Positions 1-30,253 of a stretch of DNA of 32,000 bases are shown piece after piece; the stretch's first letter is position 1; each line of letters starts with the position of its first letter. Source of the DNA: Trichodesmium erythraeum IMS101 (lineage in GTDB: Bacteria > Cyanobacteriota > Cyanobacteriia > Cyanobacteriales > Microcoleaceae); NCBI RefSeq assembly GCF_000014265.1, contig NC_008312.1, positions 4,050,001 to 4,082,000 on the forward strand, in the 5' to 3' direction. The notes under the pieces were generated by a model. That model saw nothing but the letters and a program-made list of their open reading frames with translations, was not told the origin of the DNA and did no database searches. A program made the translations under genes and the position numbers.

Positions 1-3000
1 TCAAATATTTTTTTGTGTTTGAGCGATCGCTAAATTTAGCCATCAGCCAGGAGCTGGAAAAATTGAGGAAAAAATTTATCTCAAATAATAAAGTCGTTTC
101 TCAGCCGTCAGCTTTTTGACCGAAAATTATCAGATGAAAAATTAGGCAAAAAATTAGATAAAAAATTAGACAAAAAATTAGAAGTACTCAGCCAGATATT
201 ACGGAAAATTCTCAGATGAAAAATTAGATAAAAAATTAGGCAAAAAATCAGAAATACTCAGACAGATATTTCGGTTCAAATATTTTTTTGTGTTTGAGCG
301 ATCGCTAATTTTAGCCATCAGCTAAGAGCTGGAAAAATTGAGGAAAAAATTTATCTCAAATAATAAAGTTGTTTCTCAAGCATCAGCTTTTTGACCGAAA
401 ATTCTCAGATGAAAAATTAGATGAAAAATTAGATGAAAAATTAGATGAAAAATTAGACAAAAAAATAAAAAGTACTCAGCCAGATATTACGGAAAATTCT
501 CAGATGAAAAATTAGATAAAAATTAGGCAAAAAATCAGAAATACTCAGACAGATATTTCCGTTCAAATATTTTTTCGTGTTTGAGCGATCGCTAATTTTA
601 GCCATTAGCTAAGAGCTGGAAAAATTGAGGAAAAAATTTATCTCAAATAATAAAGCCATTTCTCAGGCATCAGCTTTTTGACCGAAAATTATCAGATGAA
701 AAATTAGGCAAAAAATTAGATAAAAAATTAGGCAAAAAACCAGAAGTACTCAGCCAGATATTACGGAAAATTCTCAGATGAAAAATTAGATAAAAAATTA
801 GATAAAAATTAGAAGTACTCAGACAGATATTTCGGTTCAAATATTTTTTTGTGTTTGAGCGATCGCTAATTTTAGCCATCAGCTAAGAGCTGGAAAAATT
901 GAGGAAAAAATTTATCTCAAATAATAAAGTTGTTTCTCAAGCATCAGCTTTTTGACCGAAAATTCTCAGATGAAAAATTAGATGAAAAATTAGATGAAAA
1001 ATTAGATGAAAAATTAGACAAAAAAATAAAAAGTACTCAGCCAGATATTACGGAAAATTCTCAGATGAAAAATTAGATAAAAATTAGGCAAAAAATCAGA
1101 AATACTCAGACAGATATTTCCGTTCAAATATTTTTTCGTGTTTGAGCGATCGCTAATTTTAGCCATTAGCTAAGAGCTGGAAAAATTGAGGAAAAAATTT
1201 ATCTCAAATAATAAAGCCATTTCTCAGGCATCAGCTTTTTGACCGAAAATTATCAGATGAAAAATTAGGCAAAAAATTAGATAAAAAATTAGGCAAAAAA
1301 CCAGAAGTACTCAGCCAGATATTACGGAAAATTCTCAGATGAAAAATTAGATAAAAAATTAGATAAAAATTAGAAGTACTCAGACAGATATTTCGGTTCA
1401 AATATTTTTTTGTGTTTGAGCGATCGCTAATTTTAGCCATCAGCCAGGAGCTGGAAAAATTAAGGAAAAAATTTATCTCAAATAATAAAGCCATTTCTCA
1501 GGCATCAGCTTTTTGACCGAAAATTATCAGATGAAAAATTAGGCAAAAAATTAGAAGTACTCAGCCAGATATTACGGAAAATTCTCAGATGAAAAATTAG
1601 ATAAAAAATTAGATAAAAATTAGAAGTACTCAGACAGATATTTCCGTTCAAATATTTTTTTGTGTTTGAGCGATCGCTAAATTTAGCCATTAGCTAAGAG
1701 CTGGAAAAATTGAGGAAAAAATTTATCTCAAATATATTAATAAGTCATTTCTCAGCCGCCAGCTTTTTGACCGAAAATTCTCAGATGAAAAATTAGGCAA
1801 AAAATTAGATAAAAAATTAGGCAAAAAACCAGAAGTACTCAGCCAGATATTACGGAAAATTCTCAGATGAAAAATTAGATAAAAATTAGAAGTACTCAGA
1901 CAGATATTTCGGTTCAAATATTTTTTTGTGTTTGAGCGATCGCTAATTTTAGCCATCAGCTAAGAGCTGGAAAAATTGAGGAAAAAATTTATCTCAAATA
2001 ATAAAGTCATTTCTCAGCCGTCAGCTTTTTGACCGAAAATTCTCAGATGAAAAATTAGGCAAAAAACCAGAAGTACTCAGACAGATATTACGGAAAATTC
2101 TCAGATGAAAAATTAGATAAAAAATTAGGCAAAAAACCAGAAATACTCAGACAGATATTTCCGTTCAAATATTTTTTTGTGTTTGAGCGATCGCTAATTT
2201 TAGCCATCAGCTAAGAGGTGGAAAAATTGAGGAAAAAATTTATCTCAAATAATAAAGTCGTTTCTCAAGCATCAGCTTTTTGACGGAAAATTCTCAGATG
2301 AAAAATTAGGCAAAAAATTAGATAAAAAATTAGGCAAAAAACCAGAAGTACTCAGCCAGATATTACGGAAAATTCTCAGATGAAAAATTAGATAAAAATT
2401 AGAAGTACTCAGACAGATATTTCGGTTCAAATATTTTTTTGTGTTTGAGCGATCGCTAATTTTAGCCATCAGCTAAGAGCTGGAAAAATTGAGGAAAAAA
2501 TTTATCTCAAATAATAAAGTCATTTCTCAGCCGTCAGCTTTTTGACCGAAAATTCTCAGATGAAAAATTAGGCAAAAAACCAGAAGTACTCAGACAGATA
2601 TTACGGAAAATTCTCAGATGAAAAATTAGATAAAAAATTAGGCAAAAAACCAGAAATACTCAGACAGATATTTCCGTTCAAATATTTTTTTGTGTTTGAG
2701 CGATCGCTAATTTTAGCCATCAGCTAAGAGGTGGAAAAATTGAGGAAAAAATTTATCTCAAATAATAAAGTCGTTTCTCAAGCATCAGCTTTTTGACGGA
2801 AAATTCTCAGATGAAAAATTAGGCAAAAAATTAGATAAAAAATTAGGCAAAAAACCAGAAGTACTCAGCCAGATATTACGGAAAATTCTCAGATGAAAAA
2901 TTAGATAAAAAATTAGGCAAAAAATCAGAAATACTCAGACAGATATTTCCGTTCAAATGTTTTTTTCGTGTTTGAGCGATCGCTAAATTTAGCCATTAGC

Positions 3001-3341
3001 TAAGAGCTGGAAAAATTGAGGAAAAAATTTATCTCAAATATATTAATAAGTCATTTCTCAGCCGCCAGCTTTTTGACGGAAAATTATCAGATAAAAAATT
3101 AGGCAAAAAATTAGATAAAAAATTAGACAAAAAAATCAAAAGTACTCAGCCAGATATTACGGAAAATTCTCAGATGAAAAATTAGATAAAAAATTAGGCA
3201 AAAAACCAGAAGTACTCAGACAGATATTTCGGTTCAAATATTTTTTCGTGTTTGAGCGATCGCTAATTTTAGCCATCAGCTAAGAGCTGGAAAAATTGAG
3301 GAAAAAATTTATCTCAAATAATAAAGTCGTTTCTCAGCCGT
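1..3341. repeat. Satellite-like nested tandem array, 13 HIP1-anchored units of 250-287 bp, truncated by the window start
   Basis: The context GTTTGAGCGATCGCTAA recurs with the HIP1 core starting at 23, 298, 585, 859, 1146, 1420, 1670, 1936, 2187, 2449, 2700, 2976 and 3256 (spacings 275/287/274/287/274/250/266/251/262/251/276/280). Each unit has a conserved head of about 105 bp plus two paralogous half-units (GAAAATTCTCAGATGAAAAATTAG...TACTCAG[A/C]CAGATATT[A/T]C[G/C]G). Half-unit length varies through 1-5 copies of a 12-13-nt microrepeat (AAAAATTAG + 3 nt). By eye 298-858 is identical to 859-1419, and 1936 to about 2400 is identical to 2449 to about 2913 (dimer-level higher-order repeats). The array ends near 3341. 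Confidence 0.95.
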
Positions 3342-3440
3342 GAAGAAATTTCATTTGGGTTGTGCTTTTTCCAGGAATTTCCTTAACTCTACAGATATTA
3401 CCTTACCACCTCAAACCATTTTTATCTGCCAAAATAAGAT

Positions 3441-3569
3441 AGTAATCAGTTTTTGATAAATGATTTACCTTTCCAAAAACCAGCAGATAATAATCAGTTT
3501 TTGATAAATGATTTTTCAATTTACCCCCCAACAGCCAGCAAATAGTAATCAGTTTTTGATAAATGATTT
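3441..3569 (+). repeat. Three iteron-like direct repeats A[G/A]TAATCAGTTTTTGATAAATGATTT
   Basis: 26-nt copies at 3441-3466, 3489-3514 and 3544-3569 (spacing 48 and 55 bp). Each is preceded by a related CCAGCA-type motif. They lie 100 bp past the end of the large array. Confidence 0.85.
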
Positions 3570-3798
3570 TTCCCATTCAGTTATTAGCTCTCAGGGCAAT
3601 AAAGGTAGGTAAGCTCAGATAAGGCAACCAAACAACTATAAGTTGCCAGTAGAGTTTGTCTGACCATTCGCCCTTATTAGGTTTTGCTGATAAGAATGTG
3701 GTTGCTCCTGAAAAATCCTATAACCCCCACCCTTAGGTTTTCCCTGCTCCTACAAAAGCCTAGATTTTTCAAAATTTTAACTGAAACCGGTCGCCCCC

Positions 3799-3827
3799 TT
3801 GACAACCCAAAAAACTTGTTGTACATT
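3799..3827 (+). promoter_or_regulatory. Near-consensus sigma70-type promoter with no credible ORF downstream
   Basis: TTGACA (3799-3804), a 17-nt spacer, then TACATT (3822-3827). The roughly 900 bp downstream on the plus strand has no convincing ORF. Confidence 0.35.
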
Positions 3828-4446
3828 AATAATACGATAACTATCTCGGGCTACTACTACATCATGATTTTTGTTTGTTTGTACATTTTTTATTGATTTA
3901 TTGCAGTTTTTTTGATTAGTGAATAAATTCTGAAAATTGCAAGTAAGATGAGATGAAAAAAAATCAGATGAACTTATATATATAGAAAATTAAAATCAGA
4001 ATGTTGCTCGAAATTAATAAAAACAGAAAGAAACTCATAAGCCTCAGCCACATTCTTAACCATAAGCCTCTGCTTTAGAAGCCAGAGTCAAACGCAAAAG
4101 AAAAAAATAGTCAGCTTTATTTATCTTTTTGCTTAGCATGAATACAAAAAGCTCTCAGGCTAACCGCTAAAGTACTTGTTAGTTCCGAGTTTTGATAGAT
4201 AAACCAATATAAAATACATTAATTATTTATTCATTTATCAGCTTTTCACCTCAAAACTATCATATTAAACATCAAAATTACTTACCCAGATATTTCGACT
4301 CAAATACAGTATATTTTAGGTAAATGATGTACAGAATAAACAGTAAAAATACCTAGTATAGGTATATTACCCGGGTAACTGTACCATTAAATAATACAAA
4401 GGGCTGTATTTTTCCATGTTCAAGCGATCGCTTCATTTCAGTCATC

Positions 4447-4495
4447 AGTTATTAGTTATTAGTTATTAGTTATTAGTTATTAGTTATTAGTTAAA
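4447..4495. repeat. Heptanucleotide STRR-like microsatellite (AGTTATT)x6 plus a partial copy
   Basis: Perfect 7-nt units from 4447 to 4488, then AGTTAAA. HIP1 sites flank it at 4424-4431 and 4503-4510 in roughly inverted contexts. Confidence 0.95.
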
Positions 4496-4787
4496 CTAGT
4501 GAGCGATCGCTCAAGATCCAATATATAAATATTGTGAGCTAAGACTTACCCATCAAACTTTAATAACCAATTTATTAAAGTAAACGAAGGGCAAGTTCAA
4601 ACTTTCCTAAAAAATAAGTCAAGCAATAGTTATATTTTTGCCTATAGACACTTATCAGACAGAATTTTTCTAGCATTAGACCATCTGACAAACCCTCCTG
4701 GGAGGAGTTAGAAAAATTAGGAGTAGGTTGCTCCGGGCTAGAAATTTGTTAGTCACGCTTAGGGATGGGCTCCTTTAGTACCACCTT

Positions 4788-5324
4788 CTAATTTCTTGCC
4801 AAGCGATCTTCCTTAGCCAAAAAAGGCTCTAAATAGACCACAGGCAACTCCCTAGAAAAATTAGAGTTTGCCAACCTTGCCTCACTATTCTGTTCAAATG
4901 TCTCATCACTGAACAAAGCATTAGTCATATCTACCAAGGCCTGATAACCATCCACACCCTGATCCAAAGTCAATAATAATGGACAATTATTACCACTTTT
5001 AAGAGTTTTCGCACAAATAACTTCCTGCAGTGGAGTATTAGGGTCTTTGCGATATTCTAGAGTATATAAACCATGCTTGCGCAAATATTCTAAGCGCCTT
5101 TCTACTTCTTCACATCGTCTAGCGGTCGTCCAACCTCCCCCCATTTTTTTGACAATACCTAACCATGGTTTTTTACCTTGATCACCGTCATACATTACAG
5201 TCCAAACTTTTGTATTATCCTGTAACTCACAAGAAAAGCGGTCTGTTTTTTTGATCAATAGAGAAGGCGACCAAACTTGCGCAAGATCAATACCAAAACC
5301 CACAATATCCATGAACAACCCCAT
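4788..5324 (-). CDS. COP23-like (circadian oscillating protein 23 family) protein
   Basis: 178-aa ORF. The pattern F-x-C ... W ... RCEEVERRLEYLRKHGL ... VICA ... NCPLLLTL matches my memory of the COP23 family signature (conserved Cys pairs, RC-x-xVS/E-x-R motif, C-x-LLxTL). The start codon is uncertain. Confidence 0.6.
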   Translation of the reverse strand: MGLFMDIVGFGIDLAQVWSPSLLIKKTDRFSCELQDNTKVWTVMYDGDQGKKPWLGIVKKMGGGWTTARRCEEVERRLEYLRKHGLYTLEYRKDPNTPLQEVICAKTLKSGNNCPLLLTLDQGVDGYQALVDMTNALFSDETFEQNSEARLANSNFSRELPVVYLEPFLAKEDRLARN

Positions 5325-6387: not shown

Positions 6388-7014
6388 CTAATTTGAAGTA
6401 AGAAAATTTTTAATTAATTTAATTCCACCTTTAACAACCTCATAACCAAATATCAGAATTAGACCGCTTAAAATTGCACCCATTAAACAGAGTACCAAAC
6501 CAACCAGACTAATAAAACCATCATCATCTAACAAACCAAAGCCAGTAACAAAAATCCCGATCGCTGGTAAAGTATTAGTACCAGGAATAGGTATCATCAT
6601 TGAGATAGCCATAAGAGCGATCGCGCAACCAACCACAATTCTACCAATAATACTCGTACAAATATAACTCAAACGAGGACGAGATATCAACTCAATTTTC
6701 CGTAACCAAGGAATACCAGAGTTCAAAATTCCTTGTACTTTCTGAAGAGAAATTGTATTATTTAACCAACTCTGAGGTAACCAGGGAGTTGTAGAACCAA
6801 TTATTAGTTGAACTGCCAATAAAAACAATAAAATTCCAAATGGAATAGAATAACCAGGAGCAGGTATAGGCAAAGCTGAAGGTAGAGACAAAATTACGAA
6901 TAAAAAGCCAAAAATTCTCTCTCCTGCTAAATCAATAATATCTCTCAAAGTAACTTGAGGAGTTCGTTTTTCATCAAAAAAATATTGTTGTAATTCTACA
7001 GATAATTTAGCCAC
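6388..7014 (-). CDS. exoD: ExoD-family exopolysaccharide synthesis membrane protein
   Basis: 208-aa ORF with a GTG start. The segment GERIFGFLFVILSLPSALPIPAPGYSIPFGILLFLLAVQLIIG...PWLP is typical of the ExoD family. Several TM helices are present. Confidence 0.75.
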   Translation of the reverse strand: MAKLSVELQQYFFDEKRTPQVTLRDIIDLAGERIFGFLFVILSLPSALPIPAPGYSIPFGILLFLLAVQLIIGSTTPWLPQSWLNNTISLQKVQGILNSGIPWLRKIELISRPRLSYICTSIIGRIVVGCAIALMAISMMIPIPGTNTLPAIGIFVTGFGLLDDDGFISLVGLVLCLMGAILSGLILIFGYEVVKGGIKLIKNFLTSN

Positions 7015-20823: not shown

Positions 20824-21387
20824 AGTTGCTTGTTTAATAGTTGGCTAAGTATAGTTTAGCGAAAAACAATGCTTTGATTAAATTTATCAGGTATTTTAGG
20901 TGAATCTAAATTTGGCAAAATATAAGGTGTTTTTTCGGTTACAGCGGTTTTTATTTCAGGAGACTACTGTAGTGATGTTCCATGGAGGGTGTCTAGAAGG
21001 TTTGGGTTGTGATGATGTGGTTTATTAGCTGTAATAGGCGATCGCTATTAAGGTACAGTATTAAAGTACAGTCATAGTTAAGGTCACTTGAATAAGTTTT
21101 AGCTATTTCCAGAAAAGTTCAAGACCGAAAATATGAGGCAGATGCTAACTTTGGTCTTGGTTCTGTTTACAATAATATAGGTCAACTGTTTTACTAAAAT
21201 TATCACATTTATATGATGGCTGATGTTTAAACTTATAAAAACTACATTCTGCTATTGCACTGGCGAGTTTATGATTTTTGAGCATTCTACTGACGTTTAA
21301 GTTTTCAATTACAATGGTGCTGTGGTTTTTAGGTAACGATGTTGTCTCATATCAGCTATTTTTTTTTGTGCTTTTTCTATGTTTTCA

Positions 21388-21417
21388 CGGAACGGAACGG
21401 AACGGAACGGAACGGAA
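21388..21417. repeat. Pentanucleotide microsatellite (CGGAA)x6
   Basis: Six perfect units followed by GGGAAGG. It lies inside the tnpB remnant. Confidence 0.95.
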
Positions 21418-21595
21418 GGGAAGGTTGGTAAAAGGTTGCTAATGAGCTTGTCGTTTTTTTGCTTGTTTGTGGGCTTTGACGTTTGCAAGTTTGCTTCCAT
21501 CACTACAAGTCCCTAGAACGTTTATGTCAATATCTACGCCTATAACTGCTCGTTTTTTAGGGGTAGACTTGGGCTGATATTCGTATTTATTTTTT

Positions 21596-22001
21596 GCGTT
21601 GATTAAAAAGTCATGAGTATAAGCGAGTTAACGCAACCTTACTTTTATAATATCAAAAAAAATCTCGTTTGCCAAGGGAATTTCTTTGGGAATTTCGTTT
21701 TTCTCAAGGTTAACTAAGGTTAATTGATTCTTGGGATAATTGGGGTCGTTTTTTTTTGCGTTGATTAAAAAGTCATGAGTATAAGCGAGTTAACCCCACC
21801 TTGCTTTTATAATATCAAAAAAAATCTCGTTTGCCAAGGGAATTTCTTTGGGAATTTCGTTTTTCTCAAGGTTAACTAAGGTTAATTGATTCTTGGGATA
21901 ATCGGGGTCGTTTTTTTTGCGTTGATTAAAAAGTCATAAGTATATGCGAGTTCACCCCACCATACTTTTATAATATCAAAAAAAATCTCGTTTGCCAAGA
22001 T
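21596..22001. repeat. Tandem repeat of ~162 bp, about 2.5 copies
   Basis: GCGTTGATTAAAAAGTCAT[G/A]AGTAT starts at 21596, 21758 and 21919 (periods 162 and 161). The third copy diverges after TTTGCCAAG near 22000. Confidence 0.9.
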
Positions 22002-22394: not shown

Positions 22395-24116
22395 TTAATT
22401 ACTAGAAGTTACTCCTAAAATACATTTTGCTTCTAGTAAAACTAAGTTATGAATATCTAGAACTCGACATTTTTCTGGCACATTTAATAAGGTGGGAGTT
22501 ATGCCATTTTCCATCTGACTTTTAACTAGGTTGGCGGCGGTATAATTTAATTGTTGAAGACGATGGTTTTTTCTGACATATTCTAAGGTTAATGCTTGAG
22601 AATCTAATAACCAAAAGTCAATTTTATATTTGTGGATAATTTTTTTGACTTCTTCTAGGTTCGGACTATATTGGGCTTGGATTAAATCTTTGGCTCGTTG
22701 TTTGATTTGATTATAATATCCTTGGTGATAAGGTAAAGCATATTCGGAACTTACTAATATTGAACGTTTGGCAAATGTGGGAATATTATTAGCTTCTAAT
22801 GCTAAGGAGGCGATGCGAATATCTGAGGGTTGTTGGGCTAAATATTCATAAAGTTGGGGTGCTTTTCCGACTACATAATTGGTTACGGGAAAGTTGTTGG
22901 TTAGGGCTGGATATATAATAATTAAGGTTAATACTATATATATAGATGTAGATATGGAGATAGCTCTTATTTTTTGGAGTGGTTGGTTTTTGGATGAATT
23001 GTTGAGGAGATGGAGCTTTTTTCTGATTAATTCTATGATTAATGTGAAGGCTATTCCTCCTGCTAAAGCCATGATTATTCTGAGGCTATGTTGACTGTAA
23101 CGACTGGGATGATGTAGTCGAAATAATAATAGGTGGGCGGCTATAAATATTCCGGTTGATGCTAAGGCTAATTCTGGTAAAAGGATTATTTTGTTGGTGA
23201 TTTTTTGGGTTATATTTTTTTTGTTGAAGCTTAAGAAAATGAATAATAATAATCCTGCCCAAACTTGGGGGGGAAGAAAAGATTGGGATAGCCATTCTGG
23301 AGGAATAATGCCGGAGCGATCGCCTGTTAACCAAAAGTCAAAGTTGTTGTTTGAAAAGAAGGATGCTCTACCACCGGGGAAAAATTCTGGTAGTTTTTTG
23401 GCTTGGGTTAATGTAATGATTGGGCTATATTCGGAGGTGTTTAAAGCGTAGGGTAAAAGTATGAGGAATGCTGTGGTTAAACCTATGGTTAATATGGTGA
23501 GTTTTTGTTGGTTTGGGAGGTGGAGAAAGTCTAAGGTTAGGAGGGCGGCACTGAGGAAAACTCCTTGGGGATAAAATAATCCTAGAAGGGTAATTGTTAT
23601 GATTATTCCTAGGGAGGATTTTTTGAGGAAGTAATGGAGAAATCCTAGGAATAAGGGATAGAAAAATGCTCTGGGGGTGCCGGAGATGAGGTCGTCTTTT
23701 AGCCAAAGATTTTGATTTAAAAATAATGTACTGAGAAATCCTGCGAGTGGGATGGGTAATATTTGTATTGCTACTTTGAAACAGTAGGCGGTTGTGATTA
23801 ATCCTAATATTATTGGCAGGATTTTATTTAGTAATAAGGGTGGAATTTTGATGAGGGAAAATAGTTTATAAAGGTGGGTATATCCTTGGGGGGCTACTGA
23901 TTGAAAATAGTCGGCAATAATGTCGTTGGGAAAAAGTTCGGGGTTGAGAAATTTTGCCATCCAAAAGATGTGGGACCGGGCGTCGTCTTGGACTATATAT
24001 TGATGACTAAGGGCGGGAATTATTCCTAAAATTCCACAGGTTATGGCTAGGGTGAGGCTGAGATAAAACCAGAGTTTGACTGGGGTTAATGTGGTTAAAG
24101 TTTTGGCTGGGTTCAT
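22395..24116 (-). CDS. Polytopic integral membrane protein, possibly a GT-C-type glycosyltransferase
   Basis: 573-aa ORF with about 12 hydrophobic helices. An acidic motif (VQDDARSH) follows TM1, as in GT-C enzymes. The ~170-aa soluble C-terminal domain is unassigned, and the function is not established. Confidence 0.8.
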   Translation of the reverse strand: MNPAKTLTTLTPVKLWFYLSLTLAITCGILGIIPALSHQYIVQDDARSHIFWMAKFLNPELFPNDIIADYFQSVAPQGYTHLYKLFSLIKIPPLLLNKILPIILGLITTAYCFKVAIQILPIPLAGFLSTLFLNQNLWLKDDLISGTPRAFFYPLFLGFLHYFLKKSSLGIIITITLLGLFYPQGVFLSAALLTLDFLHLPNQQKLTILTIGLTTAFLILLPYALNTSEYSPIITLTQAKKLPEFFPGGRASFFSNNNFDFWLTGDRSGIIPPEWLSQSFLPPQVWAGLLLFIFLSFNKKNITQKITNKIILLPELALASTGIFIAAHLLLFRLHHPSRYSQHSLRIIMALAGGIAFTLIIELIRKKLHLLNNSSKNQPLQKIRAISISTSIYIVLTLIIIYPALTNNFPVTNYVVGKAPQLYEYLAQQPSDIRIASLALEANNIPTFAKRSILVSSEYALPYHQGYYNQIKQRAKDLIQAQYSPNLEEVKKIIHKYKIDFWLLDSQALTLEYVRKNHRLQQLNYTAANLVKSQMENGITPTLLNVPEKCRVLDIHNLVLLEAKCILGVTSSN

Positions 24117-24307: not shown

Positions 24308-27300
24308 CTATGTTGCATATTGCTGTAATATCTTTTTTGCCCAGATCTGTAGTTGTTCGTCTGAGTCGTTTTCGGCTCTGTCTTGTAATAGTGGGATGGT
24401 TTGGGGATGGTCTGGGTATTGTTTGACTATTGCTTCTAGTGCTGTTTGTCGAGGGTTGTCTTGAATTTCATGTATACGTTCAAAGGGATCGTTGAGGGCG
24501 TTGTCATAAAATATTTCAAAAGTTCCGGGCTCGTGTTTCCAACCAGTTGCTATTTGTCCGACGGCTTCAGTTCGCACCCGCCAACTTTCATCAGACAGAA
24601 CCCTTTGTTTGAGTAATTCTAAAATTCCGGGCTCGTGTTTCCAAACAGTTGCTATTTGTTCGACGGCTTCAGTTCGCACAAACTCACTTTCATCAGACAC
24701 AACCCTTGGTTTGAGTAATTCTAAAATTCCGGGCTCGTGTTTCCAACCAGTTACTATTTGTCGGAGGGCTTCAGTTCGCACCTGCCAACTTTCATCAGAC
24801 ACAACCCTTTGTTTGAGTAGTTCTAAAATTCCGGGCTCGTGTTTCCAACCAGTTGCTATTTGTCGGAGGGCTTCAGTTCGCACCCACCAACTTTCATCAG
24901 ACACAACCCTTTCTTTGAGTAATTCTAAAATTCCGGGCTCGTGTTTCCAAGCAGTTGCTATTTGTCGGAGGGCTTCACGTCGCACATCCGAATTTTCATC
25001 AGACACAACCCATTGTTTGAGTAGTTCTAAAATTCCGGGCTCGTGTTTCCAACCAGTTGCTATTTGTCGGACGGCTTCAGTTCGCACCCACCAACTTTCA
25101 TCAGACACAACCCTTTGTTTGAGTAATTCTAAAATTCCGGGCTCGTGTTTCCAAGCAGTTGCTATTTGTCGGAGGGCTTCAGTTCGCACAGACTCACTAT
25201 CATCAGACACAACCCATTGTTTGAGTAGTTCTAAAATTCCGGGCTCGTGTTTCCAACTAGTTGCTATTTGTCGGAGGGCTTCAGTTCGCACATCCAAGTT
25301 TTCATCAGACACAACCCATTGTTTGAGTAATTCTAAAATTCCGGGCTCGTGTTTCCAACTAGTTGCTATTTGTTCGAGTACTTCACGTCGCACATCCGAA
25401 TTTTCATTAGACACAACCCATTGTTTGAGTAATTCTAAAATTCTGGGCTCGTGTTTCCAACCAGTTGCTATTTGTTCGAGTGCTTCACGTCGCACATCCA
25501 AATTTTCATCAGACACAACCCATTGTTTGAGTAATTCTAAAATTCCGGGCTCGTGTTTCCAACCAGTTGCTATTTGTCGGACGGCTTCAGTTCGCACATC
25601 CGAATTTTCATTAGACACAACCCATTGTTTGAGTAATTCTAAAATTCCGGGCTCGTGTTTCCAACCAGTTGCTATTTGTTCGAGTGCTTCACGTCGCACA
25701 TACTCACTTTCATCAGACACAACCCTTTCTTTGAGTAATTCTAAAATTCCGGGCTCGTGTTTCCAAGCAGTTGCTATTTGTCGGAGGGCTACACCTCGTA
25801 CATTCAAGTCATCATCAGACACAACTCTTTCTTTGAGTAATTCTAAAATTCCGGGCTCGTGTTTCCAACCAGTTGCTATTTGTCCGACGGCTTCAGTTCG
25901 CACAAACCAACTTTCATCAGACACAACCCATTGTTTGAGTAATTCTAAAATTCCGGGCTCGTGTTTCCAACCAGTTGCTATTTGTCCGACGGCTTCAGTT
26001 CGCACAAACCAACTTTCATCAGACACAACCCATTGTTTGAGTAATTCTAAAATTCCGGGCTCGTGTTTCCAACCAGTTGCTATTTGTCGGACGGCTTCAG
26101 TTCGCACATCCGAGTCGTCATCAGACACAGCCCTTTGTTTGAGTAATTCTAAAATTCCGGGCTCGTGTTTCCAACCAGTTGCTATTTGTCGGAGGGCTTC
26201 AGTTCGCACCTGCCAACTATCATCAGACACAACCCTTTGTTTGAGTAATTCTAAAATTCCGGGCTCGTGTTTCCAACCAGTTGCTATTTGTTCGAGTGCT
26301 TCACGTCGCACAGACTCACTATCATCAGACACAACCCATTGTTTGAGTAATTCTAAAATTCCGGGCTCGTGTTTCCAACCAGTTGCTATTTGTCGGAGGG
26401 CTTCAGTTCGCACTTGCCAACTATCATCAGACACAACCCATTGTTTGAGTAATTCTAAAATTCCGGGCTCGTGTTTCCAACCAGTTGCTATTTGTCGGAC
26501 GGCTTCAGTTCGCACTTGCCAACTATCATCAGACACAACCCTTTGTTTGAGTAATTCTAAAATTCCGGGCTCGTGTTTCCAACCAGTTGCTATTTGTCGG
26601 ACGGCTTCAGTTCGCACAGACTCACTATCATCAGACACAACCCATTGTTTGAGTAATTCTAAAATTCCGGGCTCGTGTTTCCAACCAGTTGCTATTTGTC
26701 GGACGGCTTCAGTTCGCACAGACTCACTATCATCAGACACAACCCATTGTTTGAGTAATTCTAAAATTCCGGGCTCGTGTTTCCAAACAGTTGCTATTTG
26801 TTCGACGGCTTCACGTCGCACAGACTCACTATCATCAGACACAGCCCATTGTTTGAGTAATTCTAAAATTCCCGGCTCATGTTTCCAACCAGTTGCTATT
26901 TGTCGGAGGGCTTCAGTTCGCACATGCCAACTTTCATTAGACACAACCCATTGTTTGAGTAATTCTAAAATTCCCGGCTCATGTTTCCAACCAGTTGCTA
27001 TTTGTCGGAGGGCTTCAGTTCGCACATCCAAATTTTCATCAGACACAACCCATTGTTTGAGTAATTCTAAAATTCCGGGCTCGTGTTTCCAACCAGTTGC
27101 TATTTGTCGGACGGCTTCAGTTCGCACAGACTCACTATCATCAGACACAACCCATTGTTTGAGTAATTCTAAAATTCCGGGCTCGTGTTTCCAACCGGTA
27201 GCTATTTGTCGGACGGCTTCAGTTCGCACAAACCAACTTTCATCAGACACAACCCTTTCTTTAAGCCAAGCATAAGTTGAAGAGTCATCCCTCCAGGATG

Positions 27301-29536
27301 TAGCCACTATTTCCACAGCTTGAGTACGAATTTCACGAACTAACTCTGCATCTTCATCATAAGATTCATAAAAATAACCAAGGTCATGCCCAGTCAAACC
27401 TTTTAACCTATTTAATAACCGAGAACTCACATCACCAATACCCTGAAGACTCCTAACTTCAAACAAACACTTGCCCGCCAAAAATAAATTCTGAAACTTT
27501 TCCTCTTCCCCATCTTTTTCCATCAAATAACTAATAATATCTCCCACAAACTTAGCATCTATCATCCCAGCAATTAACCGCAATACTTCATGCCATTTTT
27601 CATCCCGCCAATGGTTACCGAAAACATCATTTATTAACCCATCTTTTCCCAAAGTTTGTGTTTCTTTAAACTGCCAAACAAAACTCCAAGCACAGAAATA
27701 TTCCAAAAAGGTTCGATGCACAAAAGCATAATATCCACCCCCAACAAAACACAAAATAAAATTACGAACCCGCAACTGTTCTATCAACGCCCTAGCCACA
27801 GTTGTCACATCATTAATATCTACACTTTCTAGATAATCTTTAATGATCTTTTTTAAACTATTTTCATCAATCAAATTACCAGCCAAACCTTCTTTATTCT
27901 GTTGCATAAAATCAGCTACTCGGCGCAAAATTTCTTGCTTATCTTTATAGTCAATAGTTATCGGGTCAATCTTAGCATCAACTAATGTTCTTTCCATATC
28001 CCATTGCTGTAATAAAATCAGAGAAGCTTGATTATAAAGTTCCGCCCTATCTCTGGGCAATTCTTGATGACGATTTAAAATAGCCATCATAGTTAATAAA
28101 AAAGGATTTTCCGACAATTGCTTAATAGCTGAATAATCATTAATTGCTCGTTTCAATTTTTCTCTTTTCCGCTCTTTTTCTCGCTCATCTTGATAAGTTA
28201 AATCATGCCAAGTTTGAATAAAATTATCAATTTGTTCTGACTCTAAATTTTGCAACATAAAATGATAAAATTCAGCATCCCGGAGTTGTTGTGGCTGATA
28301 ACCAATTACTCTAGAAGTAACAATAACTCGGACATTTTTATAGTCATTTGTAAATCGATGAATATCAGTAATTATTTCCTTTCTTTTAGCAGGTTCAAAA
28401 ACTTCATCCAACCCATCAAACATCACAATAGCATCACCATTTTGTAGTTTTGCATAAAGTTCTTGTTGAGGTAAATGGCAAGTTACACCGCTACCTTTTT
28501 CCAGAAAATCTAGAAAATTTTGGCATTTATTAGTCTCATAATTTCTCACATAAGTCTGTAGTTCAATTAATAGAGGAATTGGTTTTGAAGGCAAATCTAT
28601 TAGAGGTAATTCTGCCCATTCTAAAGCGATATATTGTAATAAAGTAGATTTGCCAGAACCAGGGTCTCCCAGAATAACTAAATATTTATATTCGGTATTT
28701 TCTATTAGTTCTAAAACCGAGCGAACTGGCTGTTCTAAATATCTGCGTCGGTCAGCTTCCAATTGTTCTGGAGAAAATTCTATTTCTAACTGCCCAGTCT
28801 CTTTTAATTGTTGGAGATATTCTTTAGGAACTTCATACAATTGAGGCATAAATTCTTGAGATTCCCGAACATTTTGAGGAATAAACATCTGCCAGAGTTT
28901 CAGTTCATTATAGGTATAACCACTAGTATCTAAACTTTCTAATTTGAGATTTCCATATCGTTCTTGGATTCCTTCTTGGTATTTTTCGAGGTCAAATTCT
29001 GGTGTAATTTTATAATTTTGATTTGCTATTTTATCGAGGTTTTGTGAATCTAATATTTTCCGTAATTCATCAGAATTTATCCGAATTGCTTGAACTTTTT
29101 TCCCATATCTTTTTGCCACTCTTAACCAGTCAAAATCAGGTGGCAAAGTTGGAATAATTTCCTTGGCAACATCAGCTAATATCTTAATATCTACAATTTT
29201 TATATTATTATCAAAAGCACTACCCAAAGTTTCTCGAACTGACTTCTTTTTGAGAAATTGTTTGAAAGGTGGAATATATTTCTTTAGCTGGTTTTCCTCT
29301 AAATCTGCATCTTCCAATTCTTGCTGTGCTAATTCTAAAAATTCTTTAGTTGCTTTTCCTATAGCTTCTTGCAAAGGTTTTTTATTTGTTAAATCTTTAA
29401 TAACATTACCTAAGCTAGTTTTAAAGAAGTCTTTAATACAATCTTTAGCAGCATCTTTAGCTAAATCTTCCAGAATAGGTTTAAATACAAACCCAACCCC
29501 TTGAGTCACTCCCCAAACAATTAACCAGTCAATCAT
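24308..29536 (-). CDS. NLR-like STAND NTPase: unknown N-terminal domain + NACHT + 27 HEAT-type repeats
   Basis: 1742-aa ORF with RBS AAAGGATGAAATAATTATG. Walker A is LGDPGSGKST (aa 289-298, Lys codon 28649-28651). Walker B is IVMFDGLDEV (aa 370-379). The repeats carry the SD-x3-VR-xEA-xxQIA signature typical of PBS-lyase/HEAT-like repeats. Confidence 0.95.
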   Translation of the reverse strand: MIDWLIVWGVTQGVGFVFKPILEDLAKDAAKDCIKDFFKTSLGNVIKDLTNKKPLQEAIGKATKEFLELAQQELEDADLEENQLKKYIPPFKQFLKKKSVRETLGSAFDNNIKIVDIKILADVAKEIIPTLPPDFDWLRVAKRYGKKVQAIRINSDELRKILDSQNLDKIANQNYKITPEFDLEKYQEGIQERYGNLKLESLDTSGYTYNELKLWQMFIPQNVRESQEFMPQLYEVPKEYLQQLKETGQLEIEFSPEQLEADRRRYLEQPVRSVLELIENTEYKYLVILGDPGSGKSTLLQYIALEWAELPLIDLPSKPIPLLIELQTYVRNYETNKCQNFLDFLEKGSGVTCHLPQQELYAKLQNGDAIVMFDGLDEVFEPAKRKEIITDIHRFTNDYKNVRVIVTSRVIGYQPQQLRDAEFYHFMLQNLESEQIDNFIQTWHDLTYQDEREKERKREKLKRAINDYSAIKQLSENPFLLTMMAILNRHQELPRDRAELYNQASLILLQQWDMERTLVDAKIDPITIDYKDKQEILRRVADFMQQNKEGLAGNLIDENSLKKIIKDYLESVDINDVTTVARALIEQLRVRNFILCFVGGGYYAFVHRTFLEYFCAWSFVWQFKETQTLGKDGLINDVFGNHWRDEKWHEVLRLIAGMIDAKFVGDIISYLMEKDGEEEKFQNLFLAGKCLFEVRSLQGIGDVSSRLLNRLKGLTGHDLGYFYESYDEDAELVREIRTQAVEIVATSWRDDSSTYAWLKERVVSDESWFVRTEAVRQIATGWKHEPGILELLKQWVVSDDSESVRTEAVRQIATGWKHEPGILELLKQWVVSDENLDVRTEALRQIATGWKHEPGILELLKQWVVSNESWHVRTEALRQIATGWKHEPGILELLKQWAVSDDSESVRREAVEQIATVWKHEPGILELLKQWVVSDDSESVRTEAVRQIATGWKHEPGILELLKQWVVSDDSESVRTEAVRQIATGWKHEPGILELLKQRVVSDDSWQVRTEAVRQIATGWKHEPGILELLKQWVVSDDSWQVRTEALRQIATGWKHEPGILELLKQWVVSDDSESVRREALEQIATGWKHEPGILELLKQRVVSDDSWQVRTEALRQIATGWKHEPGILELLKQRAVSDDDSDVRTEAVRQIATGWKHEPGILELLKQWVVSDESWFVRTEAVGQIATGWKHEPGILELLKQWVVSDESWFVRTEAVGQIATGWKHEPGILELLKERVVSDDDLNVRGVALRQIATAWKHEPGILELLKERVVSDESEYVRREALEQIATGWKHEPGILELLKQWVVSNENSDVRTEAVRQIATGWKHEPGILELLKQWVVSDENLDVRREALEQIATGWKHEPRILELLKQWVVSNENSDVRREVLEQIATSWKHEPGILELLKQWVVSDENLDVRTEALRQIATSWKHEPGILELLKQWVVSDDSESVRTEALRQIATAWKHEPGILELLKQRVVSDESWWVRTEAVRQIATGWKHEPGILELLKQWVVSDENSDVRREALRQIATAWKHEPGILELLKERVVSDESWWVRTEALRQIATGWKHEPGILELLKQRVVSDESWQVRTEALRQIVTGWKHEPGILELLKPRVVSDESEFVRTEAVEQIATVWKHEPGILELLKQRVLSDESWRVRTEAVGQIATGWKHEPGTFEIFYDNALNDPFERIHEIQDNPRQTALEAIVKQYPDHPQTIPLLQDRAENDSDEQLQIWAKKILQQYAT
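24524..27262 (-). repeat. 27 tandem 102-bp (34-aa) intragenic repeats
   Basis: The unit is WKHEPGILELLKQWVVSDxxxxVRTEAxRQIATG. WKHEP occurs 27 times, and I counted the 102-bp period directly (CCGGGCTCGTG at 24627, 24729, ...). Most of each unit is nucleotide-identical between copies. Confidence 0.95.
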
Positions 29537-30154: not shown

Positions 30155-30253
30155 TTAGTTATAAAACATGGTTTAAAATGCAGTTATAAATGTAGTTTAA
30201 AATGCAGTTATAAATCTAGTTATAAATCTAGTTATAAAACATAGTTTAAAATA
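30155..30253. repeat. Tandem 11-13-nt repeats (TAGTTATAAA / TAGTTTAAAATGC types), 8 units
   Basis: TAGTTATAAAACA TGGTTTAAAATGC AGTTATAAATG TAGTTTAAAATGC AGTTATAAATC TAGTTATAAATC TAGTTATAAAACA TAGTTTAAAATAT. The repeats lie in the intergenic region upstream of the NLR-like gene. Confidence 0.9.

Follow-up and report, generated by a model that had tools for sequence, protein, structure and literature searches.

The leftmost 3,341 nt of a 32,000-nt stretch of the Trichodesmium erythraeum IMS101 chromosome (NC_008312.1, positions 4,050,001 to 4,082,000; herein referred to as the window) consist of a tandem array of repeated units, which is placed downstream of the gene for a COP23-domain protein and directly upstream of a gene for a Y1 transposase resembling the repetitive extragenic palindrome (REP)-associated tyrosine transposases (RAYTs). 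This array, sited between the COP23 gene and the RAYT-like gene, is probably a young tandem duplication of variable copy number, i.e. a bacterial variable-number tandem repeat (VNTR) or minisatellite, and on balance it is also likely to lack a dedicated function. It displays head-to-tail non-coding repeats, copy-number differences among close strains, and signs of both slippage and unequal exchange. Non-coding DNA rich in repeats has been recognised before in T. erythraeum. Functional hypotheses that invoke an RNA product or protein binding gained no support and are less likely.

Analysis of the 32-kb window with Tandem Repeats Finder (TRF) returns a single tandem array at 1–3337, with a period of 274, 12.4 copies, 86 % matches and a score of 4878, inside which lie many nested arrays of 12 and 24 nt. 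When delimited by the anchor TCAAAT[AG]TTTTT, units begin at positions 1, 276, 563, 837, 1124, 1398, 1648, 1914, 2165, 2427, 2678, 2953 and 3234. Their successive lengths are 275, 287, 274, 287, 274, 250, 266, 251, 262, 251, 275 and 281 bp, followed by a partial unit of 108 bp that extends to 3341. A 13-row alignment of the units (alignment A1) gives a mean column identity of 84 %, with indel columns counted. A preliminary description of this DNA, made from its letters alone, had proposed three nested levels of repetition; all are borne out by TRF, the unit anchors, alignment A1 and an exact-match scan, and a chance origin is excluded for each. We also agree with its view that the array is truncated by the window edge.

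Each unit is composed of an A part (120–125 nt) followed by two half-units, B1 (57–94 nt) and B2 (61–74 nt). Of these three parts, it is the A part that is best conserved throughout the array, being nearly invariant in alignment A1. Both half-units follow a common pattern, CG(G)AAAATTCTCAGATG, (AAAAATTAGRYR)n, AGTACTCAG(C/A)CAGATATT, and their consensus sequences are ~94 % identical, with four substitutions, two 1-nt indels and one 12-nt indel between them, in agreement with the two paralogous half-units per unit that had been described. Lengths of 57, 81, 82 or 94 nt for B1, and of 61, 73 or 74 nt for B2, reflect the gain and loss of 12–13-nt microrepeats. A 21-nt microrepeat pattern, AAAAATTAGATAAAAAATTAG, occurs 30 times when up to two mismatches are allowed, with all occurrences within the array and only 0.01 expected by chance; these matches, and the nested 12- and 24-nt TRF arrays, bear out the lowest of the three levels, that of microrepeats in variable number.

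Several short motifs recur with the units. HIP1 is present once in each, as had been noted, giving 13 sites in the 3.3-kb array versus 15 in the other 28.7 kb, with base composition predicting ~0.1 across the window. The palindrome AAATATTT, originally ascribed to every unit, is found in 12 of the 13, with unit 12 carrying AAATGTTT in its place. Similarly, the small CAGCT-AAG-AGCTG hairpin does have 13 matches, all of which are in the array, but is canonical in just six of these copies; a C>T change creating a T.G pair is seen in four, and an unpaired change in four. A CRISPR array was considered and rejected, because no unique spacers lie between short repeats and it is the entire 250–287-bp period that is repeated (alignment A1).

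The non-coding nature of the array is likewise upheld. Between 68 and 91 stop codons are present in every frame, the longest open stretch is 88 codons, and unit lengths are not multiples of three. A coding interpretation was rejected, as the minus-strand ORFs that begin at an ATG in the A part (starting MAKISDRSNTKKYL) span 23–77 aa and are inconsistent in their frames and ends. At least four different C-termini exist amongst them, because the indels that separate units are 12, 13, 24, 25 or 37 nt. A search of 5.8 billion protein clusters recovered only one identical entry of 77 aa (P0164, UniParc/MetaClust), which may derive from this same genome.

At the highest level, the array contains two long exact duplications, each displaced by two units. 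These blocks, of 629 and 626 bp, enclose the identical dimers that were reported previously, with the second identity ending 2 nt before the approximate limits (2400 and 2913) given for it. There are three pairs of identical units; nine of the 12 full units can be told apart by sequence, and the overall pattern is orderly. The two-unit block duplications, with offsets of 561 and 513 bp, are the newest events in the array, and neither has undergone any later change.

With regard to copy number in other populations, the site is covered by 14 contigs from NCBI/ENA, all of them from short-read assemblies and with flanks that are 99.3–100 % identical to the window. Six (L004, L006, L007, L008, L020 and L021) harbour a single copy, consisting of one B segment and the terminal partial A part (A′), such that the distance from the ATG of the RAYT-like gene to the end of A′ is 285–286 bp. 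Two copies are present in L003, and array-type A-B1-B2 or B1-B2 units are found in L022 (a Tara contig), L023, L005 and L001, each of which breaks at that point. A further two contigs (L009 and L024) end within A′, and L025 stops in a heptamer repeat near 4461, where the array is not reached. The window allele itself contains at least 12.4 copies. The one-copy contigs come from different samples and two assemblers, with L020 and L021 (22–23 kb, 52–61x coverage) produced by SPAdes and L007 and L008 by MEGAHIT. The A′ breakpoint, ...TTTCTCAGCCGT|GAAGAAATTT, is identical in 13 of the 14 contigs, i.e. in all that reach it. Judged by these sequences, one-copy, two-copy and many-copy alleles exist, as expected of a VNTR, and the array is neither fixed nor an artefact of a single assembly. 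The very recent or ongoing unequal exchange that the preliminary description had proposed is supported by the exact blocks and by the different states of this site (one copy, two copies or array-type units) in close populations, the flanks of which are 99.3–99.6 % identical.

That a locus of one or two copies was inflated by mis-assembly is, accordingly, extremely improbable. Perfectly identical blocks of 0.6 kb do resemble a mis-resolved repeat, and several assemblies show one copy; set against this are the distinctness of most full units and their orderly pattern, together with four independent assemblies (L001, L022, L023 and L005) that hold A-B1-B2 units which cannot be derived from the one-copy allele and that break exactly there. 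One of these, L001, is a contig of the T. erythraeum metagenome-assembled genome GCA_018457135.1 (GBRTRLIN201); its 5,659-bp right flank is 100 % identical to the window, and it ends inside the array.

Even as a single copy the unit is lineage-specific on sequence comparison, because a contig from a sister species (L014) keeps the flanking region without it. This contig, for which the RAYT-like protein is 91 % identical, retains the start of the RAYT-like gene and a region of three 55-bp repeats, with ~480 bp of unrelated sequence at the position of the array unit. Searches of GTDB representative genomes and JGI metagenomes with the invariant 23-mer GAGGAAAAAATTTATCTCAAATA yielded only three chance matches, in unrelated low-GC contigs; the two JGI matches were checked by composition and unit profile, and both contigs are without a HIP1 site. 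A blastn comparison of two units with a plasmid collection gave no match. Within the remaining 28.6 kb of the window, an nhmmer profile of the unit identifies no other full copy and just one weak, old paralogue, located ~0.9 kb beyond the right end of the array. Its two segments, 4407–4452 (E = 0.004) and 4267–4297 (E = 4.2), correspond in L020 to matches of 77 % over 53 nt and 81 % over 26 nt (families D4 and D9), and point to an earlier event in which a portion of the unit was duplicated.

These alleles suggest a route by which the array could have arisen. Ancestrally, the site held one B + A′ segment of ~200 bp, an arrangement that still exists in nature and that already had four 12-nt microrepeats; the expanded allele is built of A-B1-B2 units. 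A first head-to-tail duplication of the segment probably took place at the short homology TTTCT(C/G)A found at both of its edges, as seen when the left flank is compared with the A-to-B1 junction. The B part would then have been duplicated within the unit, ongoing replication slippage would alter the number of 12–13-nt microrepeats, and blocks would be both expanded and homogenised as sister chromosome copies recombine unequally or undergo gene conversion. Trichodesmium is reportedly highly polyploid. The most plausible side effect of such an expansion is that it may alter the upstream region of the RAYT-like gene, because 10 of the 13 A parts hold a candidate promoter motif that points at this gene.

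A number of observations weigh against interpreting the locus as a VNTR without function. The one-copy contigs are short-read assemblies, and assemblers can collapse repeats; collapse is unlikely, however, because the higher-coverage branch of an array would not be pruned and because two assemblers agree. The near invariance of the A part is explained by recent homogenisation, but constraint would also explain it. The promoter-like motif, TTTCCA-16-TAAAAT on the minus strand, recurs across units in a single orientation, with only units 1, 7 and 12 (AAATTT for AATTTT) lying under the scan threshold. Finally, transcription in T. erythraeum extends to most of the non-coding DNA, and another tandem array gives rise to its most abundant RNAs (PMC4143802). 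Transcription of the present array would thus be unsurprising, given both widespread non-coding transcription and an expressed array in the same genome.

The main rival explanation, which we consider unlikely, is that the repeats are transcription units, with each firing from the minus-strand motif. Either every unit would produce a U-rich non-coding RNA (ncRNA), or the array would provide the RAYT-like gene with several promoters in series and an extended leader; a parallel would exist in the expressed seven-repeat array of this genome or in the NsiR1 array of Nostocales. It owes its weight mostly to the other tandem array, a precedent from the same species that accounts for 44.7 % of primary reads (PMC4143802). 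The uniform direction of the motif in the 10 units also speaks for it, as does the one-copy allele (L020), where the motif is the sense-strand candidate closest to the Y1_Tnp start codon, at 211 nt upstream. The motif nonetheless agrees with the consensus at only 9 of 12 positions, and the region contains 22 promoter-like matches versus a shuffled expectation of 21.0. Moreover, the sister species lacks the unit, and for wild populations a single copy is enough.

Tests for an RNA product return a similar picture. Rfam 15 yields no match in the window at the gathering score and none to the array at E ≤ 1 in 1–4800, where the sole hit is an unrelated, sub-threshold one at 3896–3936; a tRNA/tmRNA scan finds neither, and there are no intrinsic-terminator-like sites on either strand within 1–3341. 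Units display no excess folding stability relative to shuffled sequence (z = −0.02 for the plus strand and +0.34 for the minus strand). The two small hairpins show no two-sided pair changes and five pair-breaking cells, a comparison of low power given that the units are very similar. No site from the array region is amongst the top-ranked transcripts in Table 1 of PMC4143802, which is weak evidence as reads are split among identical repeats. No mention of Tery_2619 to Tery_2622, or of the array, was found in the literature, and a 2025 transcriptome paper on IMS101 contains nothing on repeats. The earlier suggestion of one ncRNA per unit therefore goes unsupported by Rfam, terminator, folding and compensatory-change analyses alike, as well as by the sister species.

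A related and rather unlikely possibility is that the array is a copy-number-variable regulatory module, in which each A part serves as a minus-strand promoter that doses a U-rich ncRNA and/or expression of the RAYT-like gene. From the motif matches, ten units may each carry a copy of this gene's candidate promoter. If this were true, the module would be a fast-evolving expression dial in an ecologically important nitrogen fixer, and strains with 1, 2 or 12+ units would make differing amounts of the RNA or of the RAYT-like gene product. Should the units be transcribed, they would provide T. erythraeum with a second case of a tandemly amplified, RNA-producing unit, beside the array of seven repeats known from elsewhere in its genome.

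A second proposal in the preliminary description, that the array binds protein or has an architectural role, also finds no support. It could take the form of iteron-like repeats, a sopC-like centromere, a cluster of response-regulator sites or A-tract bending, and we regard it as very unlikely. In its favour are the 30 close direct repeats of an A-tract 12-mer, which in the window are confined to the array, and the several small palindromes and methylatable HIP1 site of each unit. Against this, no parA/parB or replication gene adjoins the array in the window or in L020, and no partition genes are amongst its neighbours, which encode COP23, ExoD, AhcY, Y1_Tnp and GUN4-domain proteins. The A-tracts are spaced 12–13 bp apart, and their periodicity power is highest at sampled periods of 11.5–13 bp and low at 10–11 bp, so that they share no helical face and a planar bend is not favoured. 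Furthermore, numbers of both microrepeats and units vary freely, copies are not dispersed in the window, and the element is missing from the sister species.

Two more specific candidates were examined and rejected. The minus strand of most units reads TTTTCCAGC, which is two mismatches from the cyanobacterial DnaA box, TTTTCCACA; a replication origin with DnaA boxes was dismissed on the basis of the skew profile, which has no origin-like turn at the array. For a cluster of Pho boxes (SphR/PhoB), the required period is 11 bp, as these consist of 8-bp direct repeats with 3-bp linkers (PMC1906773), and the period here is 12–13 bp.

The genes on either side place the array in its chromosomal context (Table 1). 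The COP23 gene of the right flank has its 3′ end towards the array, and its protein cluster contains both the 174-aa Tery_2621 of IMS101 and the 178-aa WP_044136781.1 of T. erythraeum. Other genes of the window are ordinary chromosomal ones, including ahcY and those for ATP sulfurylase, metacaspase, 6-phosphogluconolactonase, a short-chain dehydrogenase and gamma-glutamyl transpeptidase. The left side was read from metagenome contigs with the same COP23 and ExoD genes, and holds a gene of 254 aa on the window minus strand, the start codon of which is ~95 bp from the first B half-unit. The best NCBIfam match of this Y1_Tnp protein is REP-associated tyrosine transposase, at 60.5 bits and under the curated cut-off of 80. 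Relatives at 74–84 % identity occur in several cyanobacterial orders, in Microcoleus, Nodularia, Calothrix, Leptolyngbya, Xenococcus and many others. The gene adjoins GUN4-domain genes in Trichodesmium, Calothrix and Microcoleus, and is near ahcY in Calothrix and Trichodesmium. These cyanobacterial relatives and this recurrent GUN4/ahcY neighbourhood are more in line with a domesticated gene passed on by vertical descent than with an insertion sequence that is still active, and the protein looks like a cyanobacteria-wide domesticated HUH enzyme. A parA-parB pair adjoins the RAYT-like gene solely in the unrelated context of one metagenome contig (L013, 1121–3725); the gene there, at 91 % identity, is 159 bp downstream of the pair, and the contig has no array unit.

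Table 1. Positions of the array, its parts and associated features (window coordinates unless a contig is named)
Feature	Position	Strand	Description
Tandem array	1..3341		12 full units of 250–287 bp and a terminal 108-bp partial unit; cut by left window edge (TRF, unit anchors, alignment A1)
A part, example unit 2	276..395		AAATATTT palindrome, HIP1 (GCGATCGC at 298), CAGCTAAGAGCTG, TTGAGG-N-CTCAA, 3′ end CAGCTTTTTGAC (alignment A1)
B1 half-unit, example unit 2	396..489		CGAAAATTCTCAGATG + (AAAAATTAGRYR)n + AGTACTCAGCCAGATATTA
B2 half-unit, example unit 2	490..562		Paralogue of B1; 61–74 nt across units
Higher-order duplication 1	255..1444		255–883 = 816–1444; 629 bp exact, offset 561 = two units (exact-match scan)
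Higher-order duplication 2	1773..2911		1773–2398 = 2286–2911; 626 bp exact, offset 513 = two units (exact-match scan)
Terminal partial A part (A′)	3234..3341		Right array boundary; in every allele, including one-copy alleles
Promoter-like motif TTTCCA-16-TAAAAT	308..335	-	Consensus scan, 9/12 positions; leftwards, towards RAYT-like gene
Three direct repeats of ~55 bp, core CAGTTTTTGATAAATGATTT	3437..3569		Outside array; core found solely here in window (TRF)
Degenerate old paralogue of B-end/A-start junction and A-part HIP1 region	4264..4452		Interrupted by ~100 nt; ~0.9 kb right of array
COP23-domain protein, Tery_2621	4788..5324	-	Pfam PF14218, E = 7e-18; right-flank gene, 3′ end towards array
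ExoD	6388–7014		Exactly ABG51817.1 = Tery_2622 of T. erythraeum IMS101
RAYT-like Y1 transposase gene	L020 13959–14723		Just left of window; Y1_Tnp (IS200-like), Pfam E = 1e-17

The proximity of this gene raises the question of whether its enzyme, a Y1 (HUH) transposase-like protein, made or uses the array, in which case the repeats would be miniature elements, REP/BIME-like or of IS200 type, that were inserted over and over beside their gene. RAYT genes are typically flanked by their own REP sequences (PMC3116915, PMC6006769), the gene immediately to the left of the array has such a protein as its best NCBIfam match, and each unit contains small hairpins. Most of the evidence, however, makes this origin scarcely probable. 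There is no dispersal, with 13 of 13 hairpin matches inside the array and no other full unit copy in the window, and no inverted REP-like pair surrounds the gene in L020, where units are upstream only. The hairpin stem is 5 bp and has no GTAG or CGTC tag, and the NCBIfam score falls short of its cut-off. By motif comparison rather than phylogeny, the protein (NHVH, WE and YIHANP; ~254 aa) most resembles subclass 2.1 of Quentin et al., a group that has no reported REP (PMC6006769). Nothing comparable to the array is present at the four orthologous RAYT-like loci compared (L013, L014, L015 and L017), from Calothrix, Microcoleus and two Trichodesmium-like contigs. Lastly, duplication of two-unit blocks and slippage of microrepeats are a signature of recombination, not of insertion.

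A number of other repeats and features lie nearby. To the right of the array, the 55-bp repeats and ~150 bp adjoining them (3437–3720) are 74 % identical over ~230 bp to positions 1489–1716 of the sister-species contig L014, upstream of the same RAYT-like gene; on this comparison, the segment could be a conserved regulatory element or a small RNA tied to that gene. Within the gene-free region 3342–4787, a near-consensus sigma-70 promoter (TTGACA-17-TACATT, 10/12) is found on the plus strand at 3799–3827. It is directed at the 3′ end of the COP23 gene with no ORF after it, and is overlapped by an opposite-strand terminator-like hairpin (3807–3789). A heptamer, (AGTTATT) x 6.7, is present at 4447–4493 (in the region 4424–4510), with HIP1 sites on either side (4424 and 4503), and it is here that metagenome scaffold L025 ends.

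Further into the window, the minus strand at 24308–29536 encodes a 1742-aa NACHT (STAND NTPase) protein with an NNH2 N-terminal domain. Between 24515 and 27262 this gene contains ~27 near-identical HEAT repeats of 102 bp (34 aa; 91 % matches), which is a second recent tandem amplification in the window, coding this time. An intergenic 162-bp repeat (x 2.5, 95 % matches) occupies 21590–21999, just downstream of an (ACGGA) x 7 microsatellite at 21387–21422. An imperfect 12-nt repeat, TAGTTATAAAACG / AAATGTAGTTAT, has ~8 copies at 30156–30252, upstream of the gamma-glutamyl transpeptidase gene. Finally, a 573-aa ORF on the minus strand at 22395–24116 matches no Pfam family at E ≤ 0.001.

Approximately 40 % of the Trichodesmium genome is non-coding, which raises the question of why this DNA is maintained. 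The present locus offers a concrete and datable case of how such DNA grows, with an intergenic segment of ~200 bp having become >3.3 kb within the time represented by ~0.4–0.7 % flank divergence. It is a possible strain marker (VNTR) for populations of T. erythraeum, and also a point at which short-read metagenome assemblies break or collapse.

Comparison with known repeat systems further defines the array. The NsiR1 array upstream of hetF in Nostocales, the analogy drawn in the preliminary description, is likewise a run of roughly twelve direct repeats from a filamentous cyanobacterium; here, by contrast, there is no Rfam match and no terminator per unit, the unit is absent even from the sister species, and the genomic context is different. 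REPs are tagged palindromes of 20–40 nt, with tens to hundreds of dispersed copies, often as inverted pairs. Their REP/BIME clusters in E. coli and Pseudomonas resemble the array in having hairpin-capable repeats directly beside a Y1 (RAYT-like) gene, but the latter is a direct array at a single locus, with 270-bp units and weak 5-bp hairpins. Tandem-repeat centromeres are known from plasmids, such as sopC of F (12 x 43 bp) and parC of R1. These similarly consist of some 12 direct repeats that all include a small palindrome, whereas the array described here is chromosomal, has no adjacent parAB, is built of units six times longer, and is not fixed in copy number.

A further parallel is found in the same genome. 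The seven-repeat array of IMS101 is >6 kb in length (position 103,000–110,200), with units of 736–973 bp that include pieces of Tery_0080. For each repeat, a start site has been mapped and a transcript of ~260 nt reported, and the authors suggest an origin by duplication (Pfreundt et al. 2014, PMC4143802). Given this published array, the preliminary statement that such an organisation is unusual for a bacterial chromosome was too strong for T. erythraeum. Both arrays belong to one species, are long and intergenic, consist of near-identical direct repeats and have no similarity to other genomes, and they are set apart by unit size (250–287 bp here) and by locus, the present one being that of Tery_2621/2622. 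Bacterial VNTR loci are intergenic tandem repeats that differ in copy number between strains, and are used in multiple-locus VNTR analysis (MLVA) typing. With these and with minisatellites the array shares head-to-tail non-coding units, strain differences in copy number, nested slippage, block duplication and the lack of a conserved product. Relative to typical bacterial VNTRs, however, it is larger and more layered, with a composite unit of 250–287 bp (A + B1 + B2), a length of at least 3.3 kb, and higher-order blocks.

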